Assembly (NCBI RefSeq): GCF_963921235.1
Contig: NC_086097.1
Span: 111,788,001-111,852,000 of the forward strand
Source: Mobula hypostoma
Taxonomy: Eukaryota
Length of the DNA stretch: 64,000 bases
Direction: 5' to 3'
A program made the translations under genes and the position numbers. The notes beneath the pieces are model-generated. The model worked only from the letters and a program-made list of their open reading frames with translations. It was not told where the DNA came from and did no database searches. Positions 4,111 to 49,629 of the stretch are shown piece by piece. Within the stretch, counting starts at the first letter, position 1. Each line of letters starts with the position of its first letter.

Positions 4111-7100
4111 AATCCTATCTCTCTATATGTCCTATTACAACCTTAGCCTCCCAAATGATCCCGAGTTCATCCAGTTCCATCTCTAACTCCTTAACGTGGA
4201 GTGTTAGAAACTTGCAGTTGTTGTCGCCGGGGATACTGGAGGTCTCCTGGACTTGTCACATTCTGCAAGAGGAGCATTTCACTTTCCTGCTTGGCATCTC
4301 TACTGTTCTAACTGAGCAAATGTAAAGGGGTGGGGGTTGGGGGAATCTACCTACAGCTTTTGTCTGCTTTCCCTGACTGAAGTCTCGAAGAGCTAAAGCC
4401 TCAAACTCTCCACTCTTAACTCTGACCACTACAACAATGGCTGCTTCGCCTTCCCCTGCCTTCCTTTAATTTGTTCTTGCTAATCAATCCCAAATGCTGA
4501 TTGACCGCTGCTCAAAGCTCCAGGTTTGCTGTGAGTAACTACCTTTTCCACTCGATCAGCGAACTTGAATGAACTATGTTTTCTCAGGCTTCTGCTCTCT
4601 CCGATTGCATGTTGCCTCAGGATATCGCTTCTTTTCTCCGAACTAACTAGTCTCCATGTCCTTCTCCATGTTAAATGCAGATAAGAAGTATCATCTTTTT
4701 CGATTCACTTTTATGTTTATCTTGTGTCCTCTTTTTAAGATTCTGATTTCCACTTTACGTGTACTTCTACATCCTTCATGCTTCCTCCAGAGATTTGCCT
4801 TAGATGACATACAGTTTGCTTCCTTTTTCCTGACTAGAACCTCAATATCTCTTGTCAGCCAGGGTTCCCTAATATTACCAGCCTTGCCCTTAACTGTAAC
4901 AGGAACATGTTGCATCCATTGTCAAAGGCCATGCCCTATTCTCGCTACTACCATTGGGTAGGAGGTACAGAATCTTTAGGTCCCACACCCAGCAGGTTTG
5001 GGAACAGTTATTCTACAAACATCTGGCTCCTGAACTAATGCGGATACCTTCATTCGTGACTGCTCTGAACCTATTCTATGATCTACAGATTCATTTTCAA
5101 GGACTCTTTCATGTTCTCAGTGATAGTTTTATTTGCAGTTTGTTTTTTGCACATTCGTATTTGTCAGTCTTTGTTTATGTATAGTTTTTTGTTAAATTAT
5201 ATTGTTTGTTTCTTGAAAATGCCTGCAAGAAAATGAATCTCCATGCTGTATATGTAAACTTATATGTACTTTGATAATAAATATACTTTGAATTTTTCTT
5301 ACCTCACTTTTTAAATCCTGCCACTTGCCAGACATCTCTTTACAAGCTAATAGCCTCTCCCAATCAACATTCGGAAATTCCTTTCAAATGTCATGAAAAT
5401 TAGCCTCCCAATTTAGGACTTCACCTAGCAGATCATTTCCATCTTTCCTATAAATAGTATTAAGCTAATAACTATGGTTGCTGGTCTCAAAGTGCTCCTG
5501 CACTGACACATCAGCCACTTGCCCAGCCTCATTTCCTAAGAGGAGGTAAAGGGTAGTCCCGTCTGTAATAGGGCCACCTACATATTGCTTAAGAAAACTT
5601 TCCTGCCTCGTCTAACTCCTAGTACAATGCCAGTCCCAGTCACCTACCATTATAATCTTGCAGCTTGTTGCAATTTCCTTACATATTAGCTCCTCTGATT
5701 TCTTCTGACAATTGGGAGGGGAGGCAGTCTGTAGTATAATCCCAACAGAGTGATCACCCCTTTAATTCTAAGTTCTATACTTATCCCTTTCTATGTTTCC
5801 CCTTGGAATATCCTCTCCAAGTACTGCTGTGATGTTCACTCATCGATTTTGCGTTTCCTCGACCTCTCTTGCCTCCACCTCTGTCGCACAGGAAGCATTG
5901 GTAATTGAAGATTGATTTGCCACTCCTGCCCATCCCTCAACCAGTTTGACTGGTGTAGGATTGCAGAGGTGGATTTCCCAGCATTTCCAGTGCATCTGTC
6001 ATTTGGAACACTATGGACATGTATGTGTACTGTAATTTTCTTTCTTTTTGTATAGTCAGAGAACCTTTGGCCTTTATGAGTCTATATTGGCTTTCAGATC
6101 AATCCCTTTATTCCCACTTATTACTCCTAATTTATTTGCTTGCCCATACCTGCCCTGGTGGATTCAACTCCTGGTCAGCTACATGATGGGTTATTTACAG
6201 TTAAACTACAAGCGCATCTTTCAAATGTGGGGAAGCCAGAGCAAACCACATTGATAGCACTTGAACCTGGATTGCTGGAGTTATTAGACAGCTGGACGTC
6301 CTTTAGCCCCACCATATCACCCCCCCCACACCCCCACCAATCAAGTAGGGGTAGTGTAAGTCCAGTAAGTTTATTTTTGGTTTGCTTCATAATCGTCCAT
6401 GTCTGCCAACTCGATTCAACACATGGCTGAATCCCGGCTTTTGTAAATGCAGGAAATCTAAATTTTTATCTGAAGCTATTGAACAATCGAAGCAACATTA
6501 AACAAACTTTTAACATTATTAGTCTAGATCATGCTTTGTAATTTTTCTAAATGTAGAGCAATTTTATTTAAATTTTTCTGAGTGAGTACTTTCCTCAGTA
6601 TGGTAAAATCCAGATGGACTGGCAGTAGATAACATGCAGTTCATAACGATATTGATAGAATTACATCAGTTATTTGCCTTCTATCCTCCGATAAGGAAAG
6701 ACGATTCTAGCTCTACACATGGATATACTCAGTTGAAAGTTGCACTGTTGCTAAAAGCAGTTGATATGGAGTACATCAAATTTATGATATTACATTGACT
6801 TGTCTTTTGGGAATTATAAATCAGCAAATCTGCATGGGAATTCAGCATATGAGCAGTTTCTGAAATATACATGGTCTGCTTGAAATCCTTTTTTTAGAGG
6901 GAAAGGATGAGGGCACTTTCTTCTTTTAAGCAAATGCATGAGTAGACGATTATCACTTTTTAAATAAAATAATGCCTTAGTGATGCTTGCATTCTGTGTC
7001 ACTCATGAGATTAATGATTGATTGTTGTATCCAACAATGACAGGAAACTGTATAGGAGTGTTTTTAAAGTGGAAAAGCTGGGGCAGTTCCACTCTCTCTA

Positions 7101-7111
7101 CCTCAGAAGTC

Positions 7112-7249
7112 ACAACATGCTGTCAGGACGAAGGGTTCCGGCCCAAAACGTCGACCGATCTTTTCCACTGATGCTGCCCGACCTGCTGAGTTCCTCCAGC
7201 GTGTTGTGAGTGCTGCTTTGACCCCAGCATCTGCAGATTATTTTGTGTT
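7112..7249 (+). mobile_element. Short Penelope-like element 3' end with degraded hammerhead motif
   Basis: gacgaagggttccggcccaaaacgtcgac plus terminal tail; 13-bp direct repeat tacctcagaagtc at 7099-7111 and 7250-7262. Confidence 0.75.
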
Positions 7250-8519
7250 TACCTCAGAAGTCTAGGTCCAGTGGTATGAGTAGTTGTCACAACTAGGTCC
7301 CCTTGGTTGCAATGGATGACTATGATTTCTCTGCCTTGTCATACTCTTTGCTCGCGACGAAGCATTGTGAAACCTGCCTTTCTGGCTATTGGATCTCACT
7401 GTACATCTCATCCACCCAGTCTGCTGGAGCTGACTTTGCGTGCTTGGACAGGCATGTCCCTATCTCACCAGGTATGAGGTCCCTGACTACCCTCACCTGG
7501 TTTAGCCCATCTGTTGAAGCAGTGTTGTGGCCGCTGTTGCGTGCAAACAGCTACTTGGAGTCATAGGTGAGAGATGAGTGGGACCAAAGGTGAGTGAGCA
7601 ACCTTGGAATAGACATGACGAGCTAATTTACCAGAGGTGCTATCCCTCCCTGGACACCCCATAACACTCCTATACACTACCTAATACCCAACGTGGATAT
7701 AAGGTGATGCTTGTGATGGATACACTTTAAGATTTATTTCCTGTACATGTGCAGTGCCTCAGTTACTGGTTTTCCTTAGTCTTGTGTGTCTACTTTGTAA
7801 CACTTGCAAACTATATATCCCAAAAACAAGTATTCAGTAGTTTGTTCAATGAGTTCATGTTCCAGATGGGAGTGTGTTCCAAACATTGCTATTGTCTTTG
7901 CAGTGACCTTCTCAGTCGTTATGATAATGAGATTATAATACAGCTGCAGTTCTATTTTTGTTTGCATTTTGCTTGAGGCAAAAATTCTTATTGCATCTTA
8001 TATGATGTTTTCATTTCTGGTGTGTATTGTACCTTTTGTTAGTTTGAGTGAATAGATCTTTTGAAATTTCTTGATGCTTTTCTTTAAATATTATTACTTT
8101 TGTGTTATGTTACTTTTATCGGGAGTTACCAGTTCTGTCAAAACGAGGTTATTTCAACCAATTGCCCTTTTATGTTTCTTCCTTTCCGTGCAGTATTTTG
8201 TTAAACTCAAAACAGCATTTGTGCAGTTCATGAATTCAATAAAAATAAATGTGGATGGTATCTTAACTAGTAAGAATCACAGTGGTTCTTCCCTGTGTTA
8301 AATGTAGTTAAGAGACTTTTGCTATTCCTCATTCTTTGCAAAATATTTCATTTCAATTTATCTGGGAAATACTATTCTCTCTTGGATTGTGATTCATCAG
8401 CAAATTAAATGGACATTTCTTTTTGAACTGTGGAAAATTTATTTCTTTCACTAAAAGCAAACAAAATCTACATGTCACAGTTTGAGCTTAAATTTATTAA
8501 ATATTTTATTTCATTTTAG

Positions 8520-8582: not shown

Positions 8583-8952
8583 GTATGTTTGCATTCATTC
8601 TAATAAGATGATTTTACTTGGGTGGTGGGGAAAAGGTGTAATTTGGTACGATGGTTTTCTAATTTGCTCTTGTGGTTGAAGGACATTATTCAGACCTATT
8701 TCAAAGTAACATCTTTATATTGGGTATAATGAAAACCAAATAAGAGGTGAAAGAAAATTGAGTTAATGTAGAACGTTGTATTTGGATATTATTTTTGGAA
8801 TTGGATTGAATTAAAGGTAATTGTAATATATTTTATTTTAATTGTTATAATAGTTTAATTGATTAATGTGTAATTGATACAAATATGGTGGTCAATTAGC
8901 GTAATATTCCAAACCCCTGGTTCTGTTCAAAAATGAAAATGCATTGCGTTTA

Positions 8953-9774
8953 CAACACACACAAAAAATGCTGGTGGAACGCAGCAGGCCAGGCAGCATC
9001 TATAGGAAGAGGTACAGTCAACATTTTGGGCCGAGACCCTTCGTCAGGACTAACTGAAAGAAGAGATAGTAAGAGATTTGAAAGTGGGAGATCCGAAATG
9101 ATAGGAGAAGACAGGAGGGGGAGGGATAGAGCTTAGAGCTGGAAAGTTGATTGGCAAAACAGATACAAGGCTGGAGAAGGGAGAGGATCATGGGATGGGA
9201 GGCCTAGAGAGAAAGAAAGGGTGAGGGGAGCCCACCATAGTGAGAGGGACAGAGGGAGAAAAAAGAGAGAGAGAGAAAAAAAGGGGGGGAAATTAATAAA
9301 TAAGGGATGGGGTACGAAGGGGAGGTGGGGCATTAATGGAAGTTAGAGAAGCCAATGTTCATGCCATCAGGTTGGAGGCTACCCAGACGGAATATAAGGT
9401 GTTGTTCCTCCAACCTGAGTGTGGCTTCATCTTGGCAGTATAGGAGGCCGTGGATAGACATATCAGAATGGGAATGGGACGTGGAATTAAAACGTGTGGC
9501 CACTGGGAGATTCCCCCTCCCCCTCCTGAATGAAAGTGAACATCAAGTGCTATCAACCCCATCTTCTAGAACTTATTGTAGCCTTCCCCCTCCCCCTCCC
9601 CCTCCCACTTTCAAATCTCTTACTATCTCTTCTTTCAGTTAGTCCTGATGAAGAGTCTCAGCCTGAAACCTCGACTGTACTTCTTCCTATAGATGCTGCC
9701 TGGCCTGCTGCGTTCACCAGCATCCTTTGTGTGTGTTGCTTGAATTTCCAGCATCCGCAGATTTCCTCGTGTTT
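8953..9774 (-). mobile_element. 5'-truncated Penelope-like element with GIY-YIG C-terminus and inverted terminal segment
   Basis: Minus strand 9509-9333 reads LPVATRFNSTSHSHSDMSIHGLLYCQDEATLRLEEQHLIFRLGSLQPDGMNIGFSNFH*. 8953-9090 is inverted at ~9601-9738, each arm with a CTGA(C/T)GA hammerhead-like motif. Confidence 0.85.
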
Positions 9775-9810
9775 GGTCTCTACAAGTTCATTTGTTTAAA
9801 TACCCTACAT

Positions 9811-12392: not shown

Positions 12393-13304
12393 AAGTTGTT
12401 CATTATAGTGCAGGTCAGATAGTCAGCCTGTTCTAGCCAGCTAAGTAACAAAACAGCGGAGAGAAAAGACTAGTATAGAGGGAGAGGGAATGCAACAACA
12501 AAAAGCTGCGGGCTGTGTTTTCCCTCTTTGTACTGTAAAGTAGTTCAAACCAGATAGAAAGGTGATGATAAGAATGGTCTACGAACAAGAACAGTCTTGA
12601 TTTATGCTGCCATGGTATCTCAGGCTCACAGACAAAGAAACCGCATACAGAATCAACTATACTACAGATTACTGAAAATTTACAGACAAGTTTTATAATA
12701 AAACCTGCAACCAAACTACAACAATAACAATTTAACAGCAATTTAGACCTAAATCCAGCAGCCTCGCCTCCCCACTTTGATTCTGAATACAACAATTTGA
12801 ATCATGACACTTGAAAATTTAGAGGCAGTAAAACTTGTGATATCAGCATTGAATATAGAATTTAATCAACTGTGAGTTATAAAAACATAAGGGTTCTTGT
12901 ACTGTCATGTGATAATTGGGTGAATTGTCCTTATGAGTTCAAACTTGCATGAGTTTGGACAGCTCATTTGATTATGGTCCTTATACAAGTAATTAAGATG
13001 TAAAATACAATAAGGCAAACTGGAGGAAATATTCTAACTTGTAGTGTTAAATAACCCCAGCTCCTAAGGGCTGATCTGATACAGTTAGAGAAATCCCATC
13101 TATCAGATTGGTGTATCTTGACTATACACACAATGCTGGAGGAACTCAGCAAGTCAGGCAGTATCCATGAAGGGAATAAGCAGACGTGGTTTTGGGAAGA
13201 GGGAACACCTTGTGTTGCCCTGGGAATTTACCCACTCTAATTTGCCTCAAGACTGCAAACACCTGTAATATGTATAGAGTCCATGAATTTGAAGCCGTTT
13301 TGCT

Positions 13305-15260
13305 TTACTTGTATAGACTCAGTCTGTCTCCTAAGTAAATATAGATGCAAAAAATGCATTTAAGATCTTTTGGCTCCACGCATGGATTACCATTCTGATC
13401 TTCCAGAGGATAAATTTTGTCTTGCAGTCCTTTTGCTCTTAACGTGTATCTGTAGAATCCCTTGGGATTCTCCACCACCTTGCCTACTAAGGCAACCCTA
13501 ATGCATTCTTTTATCCCCCCTGATTTCTTTCTTGAGTGTTCTCTTGCATTTCTTATACTCCATAAGCACTTCATTTGTTCCTACCTGCCTATACCTGTAA
13601 TGCACCTCCTTTTTCTTTCTTAAGCAGGGCCTCAATATCTCTTGAAAACCACGTAAACACAAAATACTCTGCAGATGCTGGGGTCAAAGCAATGCGCACG
13701 GCTGGAGGAACTCAGCAGGTCGGGCAGCATCAGTAGAAATGAACCTGTTTTTTGGCAATGGTGTACTTAGTAAGTAGGAGGCCTTCAAAATTGAGTACAA
13801 AGCTTGTATTTGCCTGTCAGAATAAAGGGTAAAGATAACAAGTGTAGGGAACCTTGGTTTTCAAGACAACACTCACAACATGCTGGAGGAACTCAGCAGG
13901 TCGGGCAGCATCAGTGGAAACAAACAGTCAATGTTTCCGGCTGAGACCCTTCGTCAGGACTGAAGAGGGAGGGGGCAGGGGCCCTGGAAAGGGCACTTAC
14001 CAGCCTTCTCCTTCCCACCCTCCCCCCACCCGCTCTATAGGGCCCCTGCCCCCTCCCACTTCAGTCCTGACGAAGGGTCTCAGCCGGAAACATTGACTGT
14101 TTGTTTCCACTGATGCTGCCCGACCTGCTGAGTTCCTCCAGCATGTTGTGAGTGTTGTCTTGAAAACCAAGGTTCCCTACACTTGTTATCTTTACCCTTT
14201 ATTCTGACAGGCAAATACAAGCTTTGTACTCAATTTTGAAGGCCTCCTACTTACTAAGTACACCATTGCCAAAAAACAGCCTGTCCCATTCCACGCTGGC
14301 CAGATCCTTTATGATACCGTCAAAATTGGCCTTTCTCCAATTTAGAATGAAAACCTGTGGACCAGCCCTATATTTTTGTATATTTACTTTGCAACTAATG
14401 CATTATGATCACTAGATGCAAAGTGTTCACCCACCCAAACTTCTGTCACCTGCCCTGTTTCATTCCCTAATAGCAGATCAAGTATCGCACTCTCTCTTGT
14501 TGGGACTTCTACATACTGATTAAGGAAACTTTTCTGAACACATTTGACAAGCTCAATCCCATTTAGTCCTTTCAGAGTATGGGGGTTCCAGTCAATATGT
14601 GGGAAGTTTAAAATCACCTACTATAGCAACTTTGTGTTCCTCGCAACAGTGTGTGATCTCTTTACATATTTGTTCCTCTAAATCGCTTGCACTATTGGTG
14701 GTCTGTAATGTAACCCCATTAATGTGGTCATACCTTTCTTCTTTCTCAATGCCACCCATAATGCCTTACTAGATGAGCTCCCCGTCTGGCCTGACTGAGC
14801 ACTGCCATAACACCAGGTTTCTTCCTTTAATCCCTTCCATTCTCTTGCATCTAAAACAATGGGATCCTGGAATATTGAGCTGCCAGTCCTGCCCCTCCTG
14901 CAACTAAGCCTCACTAATTGGTACAATATCATAATTTCAGGTGTTGATCCATGTCCTGAGCTCATCTACCTTTCCTATGATATTTCTTGCATTGAAATAT
15001 ACACAGCACAGGACATTAGTCGCACCATACCTCAACCTTTTGATTCCTGACTTTATCTGAGGTCCTAGGAACATCCGTCTCCACAACCTCTCTACTATCT
15101 GTTCTGGCACTCTGGTTCCCATCCCCTGCAACTCTAGTTTAAACCCCACTGTGCAGCACTAGCAAACCTTCCTGTTAGGATATTAGTCCACTTCCAGTTC
15201 AGGTGCAAATTGTCTCTTCTGTACAGGTTCCACCTTCCCTGTGGAAGAGAGCCCAATGAT
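13305..15260 (-). mobile_element. Decayed CR1 LINE interrupted by a Penelope-like palindrome
   Basis: ENPKGFYRY, NFPHIDW, SAILDLLLGNE, SSDHN and YFNARNI endonuclease motifs in several broken ORFs; continues at 16480-16760. Confidence 0.85.
13652..14157. mobile_element. Penelope-like insertion with inverted ends and an inverted copy of flanking DNA
   Basis: 12-bp TSD tcttgaaaacca (13640-13651, 14158-14169); inverted arms 13745-13985 and 14039-14279. Confidence 0.85.
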
Positions 15261-26130: not shown

Positions 26131-26688
26131 TTTACTACATACTGCATGTAACCAATCCTTATGCCTGCCATTATAATACTCGCACAGCAATTTGCTGTAA
26201 TTTTGTTGAATCTTTTGCTTGGCACAGTCCAAACACATTAAGGTTAACCCTTTTGTTGCCAGTTACAGCTTAAAAACAAAATGATGGATTTGTTAACAGT
26301 ATCTTCATAATTCCTTAGAATCTGCCTAATCTTATGAGTATTTTGTAAGTGTTTTGTCACTAGTTTAATAACGGATTCCAAGATTTTATCTTCTATTTGT
26401 ATTGGGTTACCTAATTCAAGTTTTCTCTCTCCCTCATATTTAGTGGGTTATATTTACTATATATAACTTATGGGAACTGTTCTCAAATCTATGGAATAAT
26501 GTTCCCCTCCCCGGCAGCTAAGCTTGTTAGCGACCAGAAGCAAACCTCCACTGGCTGGAATAATCCCAAGCAAAAAAGGAGATGGGTATAAATTTTGGAC
26601 ACAAGAGCTCCCGAGACTTTCTTAGTGCTGTCTCTGAGACCTAAAATATTCTAGATCATATATTAGAGACCTTGCCTCTAATCTATGA

Positions 26689-26903
26689 AAACAACAGGAA
26701 TTCTGCAGATGCTGGAAATTCAAGCAACATACATCAAAGTTGCTGGTGAACGCAGCAGGCCAACCAGCATCTGTAGGAAGAGGTACAGTCGACGTTTCAG
26801 GCCGAGACCCTTCGTCAGGGTCTCGGCCTGAAATGTCGACTGCACCTCTTCCTACAGATGCTGCTTGGCCTGCTGCTTTCACCAGCAACTTTGATGTATG
26901 TTG
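26689..26903. mobile_element. Penelope-like palindromic mini-insertion
   Basis: 35-nt tail then arms 26724-26811 / 26817-26904; 13-bp TSD ctctaatctatga (26676-26688, 26904-26916). Confidence 0.85.
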
Positions 26904-27911
26904 CTCTAATCTATGATCTAGAATTTGGCTGCTCACTAGAGTTTTCACAAATATTCAATTCCATTAGCCACTCCTCAGTCACAAACAATATGACAAGGAC
27001 ATTTTGGCATGAACCATTGTGTAGAATGCAGCATTTACATCACAAGCACCAGGCAACAGCCATCTCCAAAGAGAGTAAACACATTCCCTTAGAATCCATT
27101 ATTATTGCTGTTATTAAATCCCACTGTCACTTTGTGGCTTGAAGTGGGTGCAGGTCCGAATTGGCCAGAAACATAACTAAACCAGGTAAAGTACATGCAA
27201 GAAAGGAACAAAGGCAAGGTAACTTGTCTCTTGACAGCTTGAAGCCTTTACAGGAATAGTGGGTTGTAGAATTCTTTTGAATTACCATTTTGCTTGGGCC
27301 TTGCTTGATATCAGTCACCAGCTTGAGCTTGGACACATCTTTCATTGGCACAAAATGCAATTTCAAAGATTTCATTGTAAAGAGCTGTTGTAGGTGTAAT
27401 GGGCTGTAAATATGTGTGTGTTTTTTTGTTTAATTGCCAATCTGCCCAGCCTCCATCCCAAATTACATAAGGGGCTAAAGGTTCCTAGAGTGGTAAAGGA
27501 AAAACACCTACAGGTTTCTGACTGGTGGTTGGAAATGTTAGCTCTCTGAGTGTAAATAGTTAACCTTTTTGTTGCATTTACGTTCAGTAGTCAAAGTTTG
27601 GGAGCAATTAATGGGTAAATGCTGCTCATTATTTTGTTTAACCTTTTTTGAACAACATTGGCCATCCAAATGTCCTTGCACTGTTATTCACAGCCACATA
27701 ATGGATGTTTGGGACCATAAATATGTATTGCAGCACAGTAATGTGGAACATTGCTTGGGGTTCTGTAAGAAGTTTGTATGTTCTGCCGGTGACCACATGG
27801 ATTTCCTCCCACATTCCAAAGACATACGGTTAGACTGAGTGTGTTGTGGGTATACTGTGGTGCCCAGCTCAATCTCCACTGATCTGGTTTGACACAGAAT
27901 GACACATTTAA

Positions 27912-28422
27912 CTGTATGCTTTAATATACATGTGATAAAAATAATATTTAATCTCTGATGTCTCTCCTTTTATCTGGTTTAGAGATAAACGTTGGCTGCA
28001 TTGTGGCTATTGATGCTACTTTTTTGACTGACTTTGATACCAGCACTATTTGTATTTGCATTGTTGACCCCCGACTAAGAGGACAAAGATTAGTTCGGTG
28101 CATGAGAATGCTGCTAAATTCCCCTCCAAGTCGAATGTAATCCTGATTTAGATCATATTGTCAGCGGGTCTAAATCTTGGAACTTCCTCTGTGATTCACT
28201 ATAGAAATACCTTCACAGTACAAACGGGCTATTTCAAGAAGAGCAAATTGTAATCATGATGAGGCAAAAAAAAAGCTTTTGCTGTCAAAGATGCCCACAA
28301 CTTGCAGAATGATCTATTTTTTTTATTTACTTCCTCTTGCTAACCAAGTTATTTGACTAATATCAAATCTTGGATCAGAGAAATTACATTTCGCTGTACT
28401 CTGGGCAGACCTAGTCCGAGCT
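27912..28422 (+). repeat. Copy 1 of a ~510-bp direct duplication
   Basis: ctgtatgctttaatatacatgtg...cagacctagtcc recurs at 29561-30078 with about 15 differences counted by eye. Confidence 0.95.
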
Positions 28423-28424
28423 TT

Positions 28425-29560
28425 TTTGGTTTATATTTGTCCGGCATGGAAACCACTGATCACAATCCATTAGTGTTTTTGGCCACTACGAAGGATAAAA
28501 ACAAACGCTTACTAAGTTGGAGCCTGGTCTTACAGGAATTTGATATTGGAATAAAACATATAAAAGGAACGGACAATGTGATTGCTGACTGTCTGTCAAG
28601 GTGTTAAAACTTAAAGTTCTCTGTATTAGCTGAATAGCTGATGACTACCTGTATATTATTGTGTATCTAATAATGTCCATTCATGCCCATAATTTTTACC
28701 CCGGTAAAAATCCTTTTAAGGGTGGGGGTGTCATGTGTGACACCCAGCAGAGGTACTGGACTGATGATGCTAATGAGAGAGATAAGAAAGACAATGGGGA
28801 AACATTCAAAATGCTAATAAGGGAGAAGAGAGGGATTAACGGGAAAGAAACACAATTCAGCTATTGACAGATCGGTTTCTTTGAACCTTAACTGTTTGAA
28901 GTTTGATGGACAGGTGGTACCCCAGCAGGGGGATAAAAAGAGCAGGTTTGCTAAGGCACGACACACCACGAGACCCTGGAAAGAGTAGTGTGCCCCCTCA
29001 AGTTGGTGGAAGTTTGGAGGTCCGGTTCACGGGAACCGACCAGAGGCTCACAGGGTGTAAAGGTACGATCGGTGGGAACCTGGGGTGTGTGTCCGCCCTT
29101 GCCTGGGTGCCGGGTTCACCGGGGAAGAATGATGGTATCCGGAACGGAGGGATCACAGTCGGTGACCACAGCGGGATAAAAGACATCAAAGGGTTTGCCC
29201 GAAACCAACTGCGAAGACATCCAAAAGATCTGCCTGAAACCAAATTGCATCTCTCTCTCTCTCCCTCTCCAATGGTACGACAACATCGATTACTGCGAAC
29301 TGCACTAAACTGAACTGAACTCTGCTTCACTTAAGACATCATTTTACCCCTAGACTGCGATAGAGTTTGGTTGATTCCTATTACTCTAGTTCTGTGTATT
29401 TGTGTGTATTATCATTGCTAACTTGTTACATTTATATCCTTACGATTAGTGTACTGTATTACTTATTTCTTTAATAAAACTTCATTAGTTTCAGTAATCC
29501 AGACTCCAATGAGCATTCCATTTCTGCTGGTTTGGCAACCCAGTTACGGGGTACGTAACA
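28425..29560 (+). mobile_element. 3' end of a Gmr1-type Gypsy element: RNase H C-terminus, PPT and one LTR (28729-29560)
   Basis: TDHNPLVFL...RLLSWSLVLQEFDIGIKHIKGTDNVIADCLSRC* then PPT aagggtggggg and LTR tgtca...taaca with ataaaa and aataaa signals. Confidence 0.85.
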
Positions 29561-30078
29561 CTGTATGCTTTAATATACATGTGATAAATAAAAATAATAT
29601 TTAACCTCTGATGTCTCTCCTTTTATCTGGTTTAGAAATAAATGTTGGCTGCATTGTGGCTATTGATGCTACTTTTTTGACTGACTTTGATACCAGCACT
29701 ATTTGTATTTGCATTATTGACTCCTGACCGAAGAGGACAAAGATTAGTTCGGTGCATGAGGATGCTGCTAAATTCCCCTCCAAGTCGAATGTAATCCTGA
29801 TTTAGATCATATTGTCAGCGGGTCTAAATCTTGGAACCTTCTCTGTGATTCACTATAGAAATACCTTCACAGTACAAACGGGCTATTTCAAGAAGAGCAA
29901 ATTGTAATCATGATGAGGCAAAACAAAAAGCTTTTGCTGTCAAAGATGCCCGCAACTTGCAGAATGATCTATTTTTTTTATTTACTTCCTCTTGCTAACC
30001 AAGTTATTTGACTAATATCAAATCTTGGATCAGAGAAATTACATTTCGCTGTACTCTGGGCAGACCTAGTCCAAGCTT
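29561..30078 (+). repeat. Copy 2 of the ~510-bp direct duplication
   Basis: Begins immediately after the LTR terminal CA. Confidence 0.95.
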
Positions 30079-30341
30079 CCTTGTCACCAGTATAAACGCA
30101 GTGCCTTTTGACTGTTGACTGATGCTGAAGTGAACTCTTTGTAACTTCATAATTTAGTTTTGCCAAGTCAAATTTTCAATCCCTTATATACTCCACCTGT
30201 ACAATTTCATTGCCCTCTGCTACCTTTTCCAACATTACTTACATCTGAAGTCCTTATCAGTGCCATCGTTGTCATCTGACACAATCTATCTGTTTCCATT
30301 TTTACAATTTCCAGATCCTGAAAAAAAGCATCCCTTTCATA

Positions 30342-31829
30342 TCTATATACTACTAAAACTCTCGTGCTCTGTCTGTCTGTTTGTCTGTTGGTGACCTCCA
30401 ATTAACGCAAACGGTGTATTACAGCGGCACTTTTTTTGGCTAAATCGAATTAAAATGCGCTAACTTACAGAATGCAGGCAAAGTTCAGGGTTATATATTC
30501 GTATAAAATTGCTCATTCACCAAAAATCAACAGGCTATCTTTCACCTGAGACCCGATTGGCCATCATGGAAATCGGGATGCCACAGCTCGACGCATGTGC
30601 ACGGATAGCCTCAGCAGCGCCTCACGATGCTCACAGAGCTGGCTCCACCTTCCATGGAGACCGCGACGCCACACCACTGCGCATGCGCACGGCCAGCCTC
30701 AGCAGCTTGGAGGCTTGGGTGTTACTGCTTCCTATCTTCTATCAAGCACTAGGGTGAAAATATATGGATAGCCTAATTATGCCGTGTGGAAAGAGAAGGG
30801 GGACATTATGGTCAAGAGATGACACTAAACGTCGTTGGGAAGCGGCAAGGAGAGGGAAAGAACAACAATTGGATGAGGCCAGGGCCGCACGAGTCCAGGA
30901 TCAAAGAGTCAGGACAAAAAAGATGAGAGAAGACGAAACAGAGGAGGACAGATATGCACGTCTCCAAAATGACAACAATAGACACAGATAGAGGAGAGAA
31001 CAAGAATCTGATCAGGCCAGGACCACATGACTCCAGGATCAGAGAAGAAGAACAAGTGGTAGAAGAGAGGATGAGACGAAGGATGAAAGGGCTGCGTGTC
31101 TCCAGAATGATAAAAACAGGCAGAGAAGAAGGTGAGAGGAAGAGACAGAGGAGAAAAGGAAAGATCAACTCGAATATGCGACACAAAGTAATTATTGCGA
31201 GAGTTGCTGAAGACAACAATGGCCGCTTTCGACGACAATACCTCAACAGAGGAAGAGCAAGGCAAAATGCACAAGTTGCATGCCGTCACGTTTCTGCTGA
31301 TGTTGGTTCGATGACCAGAGTATGCCCTCACTGTCGTGCCTTCCTATTCACTGGAGAAACCACACATTTCTGCTGTATGAAGGGACAGGTCAGGATAAGC
31401 AATTTGCAGCCTCTACCTAATGAGCTCCTCAATTTGTACAGCAATGATAAACCTATTGCAAATGAGTTCAGGAAGAACATCAGACAATACAATTGCCTCT
31501 TCCAAATGACATCCTTTGGTGCCAAAGAAGTCATTCCAACTAGGAATCGATGGAATCCTCCTGTGATTATTCAAGGCCAAATCTATCATTACATCGGACA
31601 TTTAATTCCAGACCCGATTCCTTCAAATTTACTTCATGGATACTTAATGTTCATTCTGGTCACATATTTGTCTTGTTATGTGTCTTTTAATAAGCTGAGT
31701 TTTTCTTCTTTAATTTCCAAATCAAGGAGATAGCAATAGCATTCAGGAAAATTTACTGTTCATTCTGGCCGCATCAGACTGCACTACCCTTCTCTCAAAG
31801 GGTGCCCCAACGGGTCACCCCGTTGTCTA
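30342..31829 (+). mobile_element. Non-autonomous (internally deleted) Helitron
   Basis: A|TCtatatact 5' end; hairpin caacggg-tca-cccgttg (31808-31824) then CTAG|T; ORF with CPHCRAFLFTGE..FCCMKGQV, FRKNIRQYNCLFQMTSFG and IQGQIYHYIG, typical of the RepHel N-terminal region. Confidence 0.9.
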
Positions 31830-33650: not shown

Positions 33651-34199
33651 GTCTGTTCCTTTGTTTTATCTTAAAAGTATGTGTCTGTCTACTTACGCAG
33701 TGATGTAAAATTGGGAATTCTTCCCCTTTTAAATTTGTTTTGAGCCTTTTTTAAAAAAAAAATGGCATGTAGAGATGCACATGGATGATGAAAAATTGGA
33801 GGGCTATGTAGGAGGGAAGGGTTATATTGATCTTAGAGTAGATTTAAAAGGTCAACACAACATCATGGGCCAAAAGGCCTGTACTATGCGGTAATACTGC
33901 CTTTTTATCACTGGTGAGATCACTCCACATGGAGATGGAAAACTGCATTTTGACCACTAGTGAGATTGCTTTGCTGTGGAGAGGGGAGACTGCCTTTCGA
34001 TCGCTGGTGGAATTGCTCTGCTGCTGGAGAGGGAAAGGCCTGCCGCCTGACCTGAAGAATGTCACCAGGTTTTCTGTGTTTTTTATATGGACGTGGACTA
34101 TAGACTTCTTTTCAGTCTTGTAGTTTTTTCGCCCTATCTTTCTAGCTTTTTTTTTGTGTGTGGGAGAGGGGGATTTGGGGGTTGATGAGCCTATTCCAT

Positions 34200-34485
34200 G
34201 CAACACACATCAAAGTTGCTGGTGAACGCAGCAGGCCAAGCAGCATCTATAGGAAGAGGCGCAGTCGACGTTTCAGGCCGAGACCCTTCGTCAGGACTAA
34301 CTAAAGGAAGAGTGAGTAAGGGATATATCCCTTACTCACTCTTCCTTCAGTTAGTCCTGACGAAGGGTCTCGGCCTGAAACGTCGACTGCGCCTCTTCCT
34401 ATAGATGCTGCTTGGCCTGCTGCGTTCACCAGCAACTTTGATGTGTGTTGCTTGAATTTCCAGCATCTGCAGGATTCCTGTTGTT
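34200..34485. mobile_element. Penelope-like spacer-less palindromic insertion with two hammerhead motifs
   Basis: 34200-34451 is a 252-bp palindrome centred on ggata|tatcc with one mismatch, followed by a 34-nt tail; 14-bp TSD tgagcctattccat (34186-34199, 34486-34499). Confidence 0.9.
34353..34388 (+). ncRNA. Minimal type I hammerhead ribozyme motif (Penelope-associated)
   Basis: AGUC-CUGACGA-A-GGGUCUCGGCCU-GAAAC-GUC-GACU: stem I AGUC/GACU, core CUGANGA and GAAA, short stem II, loopless palindromic ACGU stem III, GUC triplet. Mirror copy on the minus strand at 34263-34298. Confidence 0.7.
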
Positions 34486-35140
34486 TGAGCCTATTCCATT
34501 TTTTGTTTGTTTTTTTTGTGGGGAGGAGGGATTTTGGGGGGGGGTGTTGATGATCATGATGATCAAAAGGCAGTTTTGTGGCCATCTGGAGAAGAATTTC
34601 AGAGTTGTATACTTTGATAATAAATTCACTCTTGGTGTTCTGAGCCTATGTTCTGAAGTTGGTGAGGGAAAATGGTAGATACGGAAAGTGATTGGTGGAC
34701 CCAAATAAGGGAGGGATAATGGGCAGATGGAAATGGGTATGGAAGGGGATAAGAAAGGTGAACCAAGGAAGAAGGCGGCCAGGTAGATGGGTATGTGGGT
34801 GAATTTTATTTCCTGTATAATTGAGTTTTGTAATTTGTTTCCACCGAGCACCTACCAACTGTTGTCTCAATATTCTCCTCTAGTTCCATGTATTAACTCT
34901 CTTGCATTTCTATACTGATTATCTTCCCTCTGCATTCTGTCCTGAAGTGAGGTCTCATCCCAAAATCTCGATCATCGCTTTGCTTCCAGGGATGCTGGAC
35001 TTCTTCCAGAAGTTTGCTTTTTGTTTCAGCTTCCAATATCTGCAGTCCTGTGTCTCTATCTTGGTATTGCAATGACATCTTAATTTGGGTAATATTGTCT
35101 GTCTTAATCACATTAATTATCTAACTTACCTTTTTTTTAG

Positions 35141-47262: not shown

Positions 47263-48352
47263 GGTAGTACACATTAATTGGCAATAATATTAATCATAAT
47301 GAATTAATGAACAGATTGGATTGCTCATTTTTGGAGTTAAGGGGTGTTCAGAAATTCACAAATACATAAAGACTGAAGATTTTTCTTGGGCTGCAGGAAT
47401 GCAGGTTCTTGTCCAAAGTGTTCTTTTTCCCCATTATTTCACTGTTACTAAGATTTAGAAAGTACTTGCATTGTAGAACAGCAATGTTTTCGCAGTGAAA
47501 TTTTAGAGCATTTCAACAGGGAGGAAGGCCCATGACAGAGCCAAGTACAGGACCAGAGCAACGTGGCACGAATTATCTTCTATAATTTTCATGTCTGAGA
47601 TTGCGTGAAGAAATCTCATGCACCATTCTTTGGCAGTACTTGCCTTCCATTAATTACTTACATTCATTATGTCCCCAAACTAGCTCTTTATCTTGCTCCC
47701 TTAAATGCAGGGGTCACGCCGCAATAGAATGAAACTGTTAAAGAAGGGTGAATGTGTCATTAGAAAATAACAGTGAAAATGAATGAATGATATTTCTGCT
47801 GTCATTGATTATTTTTGCTAGCAAACAACTGGAATAAGGCTTTCTTAGATAATCCATTTTAACCTCTTGTGCTCCTCCTTAAATATCACATGCTTAGTAC
47901 AAAGCATCATGCGGAACTAAAAGCACATTTTGCCTTTTGAGTGGTTAAAGTGACAGCTGCTTTTATGAGGAGGAAAATTATAAGAGTACCAACAGCATTG
48001 ATTTTAATTGTTCAGGTTTACAGCTTTACATTCTGTATGCTATGCTTCCTGCAGGGTAAAAATGGGTACATATGTTAGAATGCTTCATTAGCTATAGAAT
48101 GTTTTAGGCTGTCTTAAGATTGTGAAAAGTGTTAAATAAATGTAACACACATAAAATGCTAGAGGCAGCATCTATGGAAAGGAATAAAGAGTCGCCGCTT
48201 TAGGCTGAGACCCTTCGTCAGGACTGGAAAGGAAGCGGCATTCAGTAACTTTTGTTGAGGAATTCTAATGAAAGAACTGTAAGAAAAATTTTTTGAAGTT
48301 TTTATTTCTCCAGCTACTTGCTTTTCACATTGTGATTTAATTATATTTTCAG

Positions 48353-49454
48353 GAAGGTCTGTGGAGGCAAGCTGTAACTGGGACCAGTTCCACTGCAATA
48401 ATGGAAAATGTATCCTAGATATCTGGAAATGCAACTCCATGGATGAGTGTGGGGATAATTCTGATGAAGAATTTTGTGAGCTGTCAATGCCCCCTACTGA
48501 TTTCCCATTTCAGCCTTGCACTTATGATCAATTCCAGTGCCTTTCCCGATATACAGCATCTTATACATGTTTACCTGAATCCCTGCGATGCGATGGAAAT
48601 ATTGACTGCCTTGATTTGGAAGATGAAATAGATTGTGATGTTCCTAGTTGTGGTGAATGGCTAAGAAACTTTTATGGCACGTTTAATTCTCCAAATTATC
48701 CTGCCTTTTATCCTCCTGGAAGCAACTGTACGTGGCTAATAGATACGGGAGACCGACGTAAAGTTATTTTACGCATTAATGATTTGAAGCTGGATGGCAT
48801 AGGCTATGGGGATTATATAAAAGTGTATGATGGTCTGGAGGAAAATTCACACAAGTTGCTCCGCGTTCTAACGCCCTTTGACTCCCGGACACCAATAACG
48901 GTTATCTCCTCTTCGGGTCAAGTTCGCATACATTTCCATGCTGACAAAGTGAATGCAGCTAGAGGTTTTAATGCCACTTACCAAGTTGAGGGATTTTGCC
49001 TTCCATGGGAAATTCCCTGCGGAGGTAATTGGGGTTGCTATTTTGAACAGCAGCGCTGTGATGGTTATTGGCACTGCCCAAATGGACGAGATGAACACAA
49101 CTGCAGCTCATGCCAGAAGGACGAATTCCCCTGTTCCCGCAGTGGTGTGTGCTACCCTCTGGCTGACCGTTGTAATTACCAGAATCATTGCCCAAATGGC
49201 TCTGATGAGAAGAACTGTTTCTTTTGCCAACCTGGTAATTTTCACTGCAAGAATAACCGCTGCGTTTTTGAGAGTTGGGTGTGTGACGCACAGGACGACT
49301 GTGGTGATGGCAGTGATGAAGAAAACTGTCCTGTGATCATCCCCACCAGAGTTATAACTGCAGCAGTCATTGGAAGTTTAATCTGTGGGTTGCTGCTTGT
49401 GATTGCTCTAGGATGTACCTGCAAACTTTACTCTCTCAGAATGTTTGAACGCAG
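48353..49454 (+). CDS. LRP12: LRP12 exon 5 (1102 bp; 2 LDLa, CUB2, 3 LDLa, transmembrane helix)
   Basis: attttcag|GAAGG ... CGCAG|gtaagt. Contains FCQPGNFHCKNNRCVFESWVCD and PTRVITAAVIGSLICGLLLVIALGCTCKLYSLRMFERR, which match recalled LRP12 better than LRP3 or LRP10. Confidence 0.97.
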
Positions 49455-49629
49455 GTAAGTTCTGAATTATGATACCATATTTGTTGTGAATAAATTAAGA
49501 AGTACAGTTCTTGTAAAACAAAATTATTTCATATAATCTAAAGAAATATTTTCAGATACTCTGTGCCTGCTTTAGAATGAAGGTGGAAGCATCTTCCTGT
49601 CTGACCGGTTTTAAGTATTTTGGTGGGAT

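Follow-up and report, generated by a model that had tools for sequence, protein, structure and literature searches.

A Penelope-like insertion at 13640-14169 of the window (the whole 64,000-nt stretch of Mobula hypostoma DNA analysed here, contig NC_086097.1) carries inside it an inverted copy of 122 nt of its own downstream flank. The reading that we favour, with a probability of roughly 0.55, is that an ordinary two-armed insertion aged and that a template switch or a fold-back then replaced its inner left arm with a copy of the right arm and of the flank behind it. This reading would rest on the contrast in arm divergence, the CpG losses shared by the long arms, the rare letters in the loop and a mismatch near the inner end of the repeat. 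Judged by its letters, the locus is decayed as an old copy and its arms are matched as in a new copy. The layout of such insertions and the product of such a template switch are each known; what is new is that both are found at one locus.

Layout of the insertion and its target site

The inverted repeat pairs 13745-13985 with 14039-14279, as two arms of 241 nt around a spacer of 53 nt; the sole mismatch is at 13966, and pairing stops at both the outward and the inward ends. The flank contributes 122 nt to each arm. Read from left to right, the locus consists of a target site duplication (TSD), a 37-nt tail, a 55-nt piece of arm, the inverted flank with its TSD, an arm, the 53-nt loop, the other arm and the TSD, with a single extra base at 13652, between the left TSD and the tail. 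The individual features are as follows.

13300..15260, minus strand: host LINE, decayed, of the AP-endonuclease type, split by the insertion
13640..13651, plus strand: left TSD, 12 bp, present as one copy in paralogous LINE contigs
13653..13689, minus strand: Penelope tail, 37 nt, at this end only, matching the sibling copy at 7155-7252
13690..13744, minus strand: rest of the original tail-bearing arm, 55 nt, ending right before the hammerhead motif
13744..13745: outer junction J1, blunt, with neither microhomology nor filler
13745..13866, minus strand: inverted flank copy (of 14158-14279), 122/122 identical
13855-13866: reverse-complemented TSD, within the inverted flank copy
13867..13985, minus strand: inverted copy of the right arm, 118/119 identical; from the mismatch at 13966 inward it may preserve part of the left arm first inserted
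13981..13994: inner junction J2, with a mini-hairpin of 5-bp stem and 4-nt loop (GCCCT-GGAA-AGGGC)
13995..14038, plus strand: loop, 5'-truncated element body
14039..14157, plus strand: right arm, tail-less, RNA sense; includes 14062-14099, a putative minimal hammerhead motif in degenerate form
14158..14169, plus strand: right TSD, 12 bp
14158..14279, plus strand: donor stretch in the flanking LINE, source of the copy

An initial annotation of this DNA had already described arms of 241 bp with one mismatch, half of them host-side DNA, around a 53-nt spacer, and had read 13745-13866 as the reverse complement of the downstream flank including the TSD; remeasurement returned the same values, and the tail-bearing end that it placed at about 13653-13744 resolves into the 37 nt of tail and the 55 nt of arm start. 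Among eight Penelope-like copies compared within the window, each taken with 400-nt flanks, the longest exact match between the inverted interior and the flank is 122 nt at this locus versus 0-10 nt in the seven others.

The 12-mer TCTTGAAAACCA, which is 12 nt and not 13 nt long, has direct copies at 13640 and 14158 and an inverted one at 13855, and all three copies are identical. Assembled contigs from 4 of the 23 listed runs were compared with the window at 88% likeness (50,644-70,536 per run, nearly all of them paralogs). On the inverted flank, 65 X17 contigs continue beyond 13866, and their consensus agrees with 13610-13639, read in reverse complement, in 27 of 30 letters; one contig of X5 joins 13648 to 14174 with 6 letters between. 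The continuing and the bridging contigs alike come from paralogs of the LINE and do not show the empty site at the orthologous position. The TSD reported by the initial annotation is genuine, and the LINE family is without the inverted segment, because the paralogous LINE contigs (X17, X5) show the TSD word once and the inverted segment not at all. The host LINE, which we take to be a CR1 from its translation and not from a library hit, has paralogs within the window at 81-83% identity and one frame that is stop-free across the insertion point. The copied "host" DNA is itself an old LINE copy.

Elsewhere in the window, 27935-30083 is duplicated in tandem, the units repeating about every 1.65 kb at an identity of 96-98%. 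An open frame of 268 aa at 30927-31733 on the plus strand presumably resembles, in its C-terminal half, the N-terminal region of Helitron proteins, and another of 391 aa at 48283-49458 holds what we take to be LDL-receptor class A repeats, a CUB-like domain and a transmembrane stretch, in the likeness of an LRP12-type exon.

The element and its relatives

The element is of the Penelope-like group: it is truncated at its 5' end, has two arms and bears the 37-nt tail on one side. This architecture has been published for Penelope-like elements that carry an endonuclease (Pen2a_Av in PMC3846280; PMC8557442 for the general scheme; here and below, statements on cited papers refer to the parts of their text that were available). 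The assignment to this group made by the initial annotation is borne out by inverted arms of the pLTR type inside a short TSD (12 bp), as in EN+ Penelope-like elements, and by a tail of 37 nt at the left end that is missing at the right, within the 30-40 nt of the one-sided tails. Two siblings, at 26676-26916 (13-bp TSD) and 34186-34499 (14-bp TSD), likewise combine two inverted arms with a one-sided tail, and the family joint 13689->13867 is present among the contig joints listed (15 of 2370) in 11, 4, 3 and 4 contigs of the four runs. The PAc protein of Anolis cuts and extends both strands, with starts of the reverse transcriptase (RT) at two sites that bound the tail (PMC11167929).

A hammerhead-type core of the form CTGA-N-GA...GAAA is predicted by motif scan, with stems I and II that fold; it is degenerate in this copy. 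A minimal core of the hammerhead type has been described in such arms (PMC6155905). Rfam returned no hammerhead match for the element at the gathering score or at E<=10; at gathering it returned no match of any kind, and below gathering generic miRNA-hairpin matches only.

The copy at 13640-14169 contains no part of an ORF. The related copy at 8951-9775, whose arm is about 80% identical, encodes 58 aa that match eight ray proteins (Mobula, Hypanus, Hemitrygon) at 81-91%; a GIY-YIG match slightly under the curated cut-off is found in four of the five ray proteins scanned, and the 58-aa fragment alone has no match in Pfam. Pattern scans of viral contigs gave 0 matches, as did the tail pattern in metagenomes. 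A shorter pattern returned 21 metagenome loci, which were rejected as chance, the element match extending over just 19-25 nt in 21/21.

At the inner junction of the copy at 8951-9775, for which no TSD of at least 6 nt was found, about 70-90 nt of filler (9511-9601) lie between C-rich repeats, and the best match of this filler in the window is 14 nt. The same-subfamily copy at 7099-7262 has a 13-nt direct repeat and a tail-less arm of about 11 nt, and it reads GTCAGGAC versus GTCCTGAC in the others, suggestive of a micro-inversion within the hammerhead stem. In the minimal two-armed copies at 26676-26916 and 34186-34499 one arm passes into the other at a 3-nt inverted match and at a perfect palindrome centre; turns akin to those of the minimal copies are seen in many contigs, from 13960/13961 to 14063/14064.

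Arm decay, junctions and the proposed order of events

Between the tail arm and the right arm, the true arm pair of the insertion, there are 7 differences in 55 columns and one 4-nt gap; between the 241-nt arms there is a single difference in 241 positions (Fisher p 0.006 with clustered changes counted as one event, 4/58). The cluster, at 13690-13702, comprises three substitutions, the 4-nt gap and a further substitution in a stretch of 13 nt, adjoins 34 identical nt and is probably one complex mutation; no source of at least 8 nt for it was found locally. Both long arms carry the identical lost state at four sites that are CpG in the same-subfamily sibling 7121-7252, and two further probable CpG sites behave likewise in both. 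In the control copies at 9.0 kb and 26.7 kb the changed CpG sites differ between the arms in 7 of 8 cases (p 0.01), and in the control at 34.2 kb the arms are near-identical (1/126) with CpGs kept at 6/6, these controls being three copies, all of another subfamily, and the same-subfamily reference being one copy. Between the tail arm and the right arm, both of the changed CpG sites (2/2) differ, one of them as TG versus CA.

The long arms share decay that is absent in the tail arm, and therefore the duplication postdates the decay; with decay of the old type and an arm match of the new type, the middle arm would have been copied from, or equalised to, the right arm after decay. An integration-time origin keeps some weight because the decay could stem from the source RNA rather than from the locus. 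Decay in place is suggested by the tail arm's own changes and by three family-rare loop letters, at 14031, 14032 and 14035, which depart from the family majority; the depth without the majority loop letter is at most 0.2-0.5% in X1 and 0-0.2% in X17, values that are compatible with a small sibling lineage. For the age of the duplication itself, five of the eight listed X5 pieces, with three paralogs dropped (13-15 differences each), show 15 differences in 870 letters versus the window; against this rate, 1/241 has a p of 0.085, too weak for dating.

As for the inner junction, mini-hairpins of the J2 type are found at 185/21317 sampled window positions (0.9%). On the top strand, the first half of the hairpin is the end of the arm, and the loop resembles the family continuation at 4/6 letters (3/6 in the right arm's version). 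By a weak and post hoc argument, this suggests that the top-strand 3' end was processed at J2, so that the original left cDNA would have reached J2. The mismatch at 13966 sits 20 nt from J2 and the inner end, the spot expected for a relic of the old left arm. No source of at least 8 nt for the J2 filler was found within 12.5-15.5 kb, and the right cDNA folded as DNA showed nothing unusual (z -0.21).

From the geometry, the TSD, the divergence pattern and the junction sequences observed, we infer the following order of events and the enzymes behind it. In a first step, of a known kind, a Penelope-like RNP would have cut the old LINE with a stagger of 12 nt, and reverse transcription would have been primed from both ends, one cDNA beginning at the tail and the other 37 nt inward of it. 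Head-to-head joining of this cDNA pair at J2 would have given the order TSD-tail-arm-body-arm-TSD, and the copy would then have aged, its arms losing CpGs independently. In a second and later step, replication or break-repair synthesis would have halted at 13744 in the left arm, switched to the opposite strand, copied backwards the 122-nt flank with the TSD and then the greater part of the right arm, and returned to the original left arm by homology near the arm's inner end. In a mirror version, the other strand would fold back on the pre-existing inverted repeat, overrun into the flank and be blunt-joined at J1. Some 20-60 nt of the old left arm would have been replaced, one switch relying on arm homology and the other on none. 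When the switch points are placed on an ancestor modelled on the sibling copies, point 1 falls at 13744 and point 2 at 14279, with points 4 and 3 in the inner parts of the left and the right arm respectively. The order is that of the 1-4-3-2 type, which accounts for 31% of high-confidence human-chimp events and creates inverted repeats (PMC5453318).

Against such a later switch stand a J1 without microhomology, the need for two events where the rival needs one, and a tract of 221-241 nt, which is long for the short-range class. The decay may moreover come from the source RNA, and hammerhead mutants insert in vitro nonetheless (PMC11167929). The integration-time readings, in which Penelope cDNA folds back and copies itself, the TSD and more than 100 nt of target, so that inverted flank duplications arise at insertion, are taken together a serious minority possibility.

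Within this group a single, young integration, in itself unlikely, comes first. Tail-less cDNA primed at the right TSD would snap back at J2, with both RNA templates derived from already decayed loci, and by strand displacement would copy 110 nt of flank in addition to its own arm and the TSD. It would then be joined blunt to the tail-bearing cDNA, via end joining or an end-to-end jump of RT. Both junctions would then come from one event, the TSD copies (n=3) would be expected to be identical, and a blunt J1 fits with template jumping. Cutting and extension of both strands are known from the PAc protein (PMC11167929), and the fold-back flank duplications of L1, at 52-220 bp, cover the 122 nt found here (PMC10191854). 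Two separately decayed templates are however required; the homology for priming at J2 is the mini-hairpin alone, whose first half stays unexplained on that strand; the loop letters of the right arm are family-rare; and the young-looking control at 34.2 kb has its CpGs intact.

More doubtful still is an old integration-time fold-back whose 241-nt arms were later equalised by arm-to-arm conversion. It would square an old, decayed insertion with near-identical arms, and template switching does homogenise imperfect inverted repeats (PMC5453318, PMC8604942), but the arms of the controls are unequalised even at a 5-nt spacer (4/87 and 13/139 differences), conversion must extend to the edge of J1 (0 differences in the outer 221 nt), and the J2 hairpin argument counts against it as well.

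That the structure is an artefact of the library or the assembly, for instance a chimera produced by fold-back or a hairpin-forming repeat misassembled locally, is very improbable. The inverted copy is near-perfect, insertions of this sort trouble assemblies (PMC8557442), and neither J1 (13744/13745) nor a plain unduplicated allele was found among the matches listed (32 of 252,159 pieces; 15 of 2370 joints). Yet one base distinguishes the arms, the outer junction is clean, the right register is regained after just 241 nt, and two flanking pieces of X1, 254 and 369 nt long, are identical to the window, so that the region nearby is accurate. An X5 piece is unbroken over 14202-14349 at a depth of 61.7, versus 40-67 in other near-identical pieces, which is compatible with every model.

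The least likely reading is the one that the initial annotation had proposed, a switch from element RNA to target DNA during integration. Its proposal that the inverted flank was copied by a switch stands; the integration timing and the RNA-to-target-DNA jump as the best reading do not, given the decay shared by the arms. RT would have quit the RNA at 13744 and resumed on native target DNA at 14279, and at J1 the element cDNA does abut the inverted flank without homology. By the geometry, copying of native target from 14279 leftwards through the TSD into the arm implies that the right end was already finished and double-stranded; the product would be sealed to its own template across the 53-nt loop, the decay pattern is contrary, and the jump is disfavoured because a self-primed fold-back or a later switch yields the same product with fewer steps. 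A second Penelope insertion was rejected by reasoning, since it leaves the flank copy unexplained.

Relation to known systems and meaning

The insertion resembles the published EN+ Penelope-like insertions (PMC3846280, PMC8557442, PMC11167929) in its TSD, inverted arms, 30-40-nt tail at one end, 5' truncation and putative hammerhead motif; unlike those described in the available text, it additionally contains flank, TSD and arm copied in inverted orientation in its interior. With the 1-4-3-2 switch (Loytynoja and Goldman, 2017; PMC5453318) and the perfection of quasi-palindromes it shares a reverse-complemented copy of downstream sequence, the return to the template and a near-perfect new inverted repeat; it differs from that class, as far as the accessible text describes it, in its tract of 221-241 nt and in a pre-existing repeat that came from a retroelement insertion. 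In fold-back priming (Al-Zain, 2023; PMC10622511) a 3' end likewise anneals to a neighbouring inverted repeat and primes synthesis; the system described there yields hairpin-capped and dicentric chromosomes in yeast mutants, whereas here synthesis would have stopped after about 240 nt and the ends would have been rejoined. Somatic L1 fold-back (Nam, 2023; PMC10191854) also places an inverted flank duplication of 52-220 bp beside a TSD-bearing insertion, and was reported for four somatic insertions (0.4%); the duplicated unit at the present locus, unlike those in the part of that paper available, takes in the element's own arm, which is decayed.

A Penelope insertion with an inverted flank copy was not found in the literature searched, a search thin on subscription papers, including the older Drosophila virilis work, and with supplements outside it; the available parts of PMC9977147 and PMC12016303 hold nothing on such a structure.

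One locus is insufficient to prove either reading a general habit. If the duplication arose at integration, the locus would record the resolution of the two Penelope cDNA ends, a step that the available text of PMC11167929 calls not yet validated. If the later switch is true, the two-armed Penelope insertions of rays would be ready imperfect hairpins at which template switches and inverted duplications nearby could later start. The process is known, its substrate would be new and abundant, and it can be counted genome-wide; the identity of the arms would be misleading for dating such insertions.
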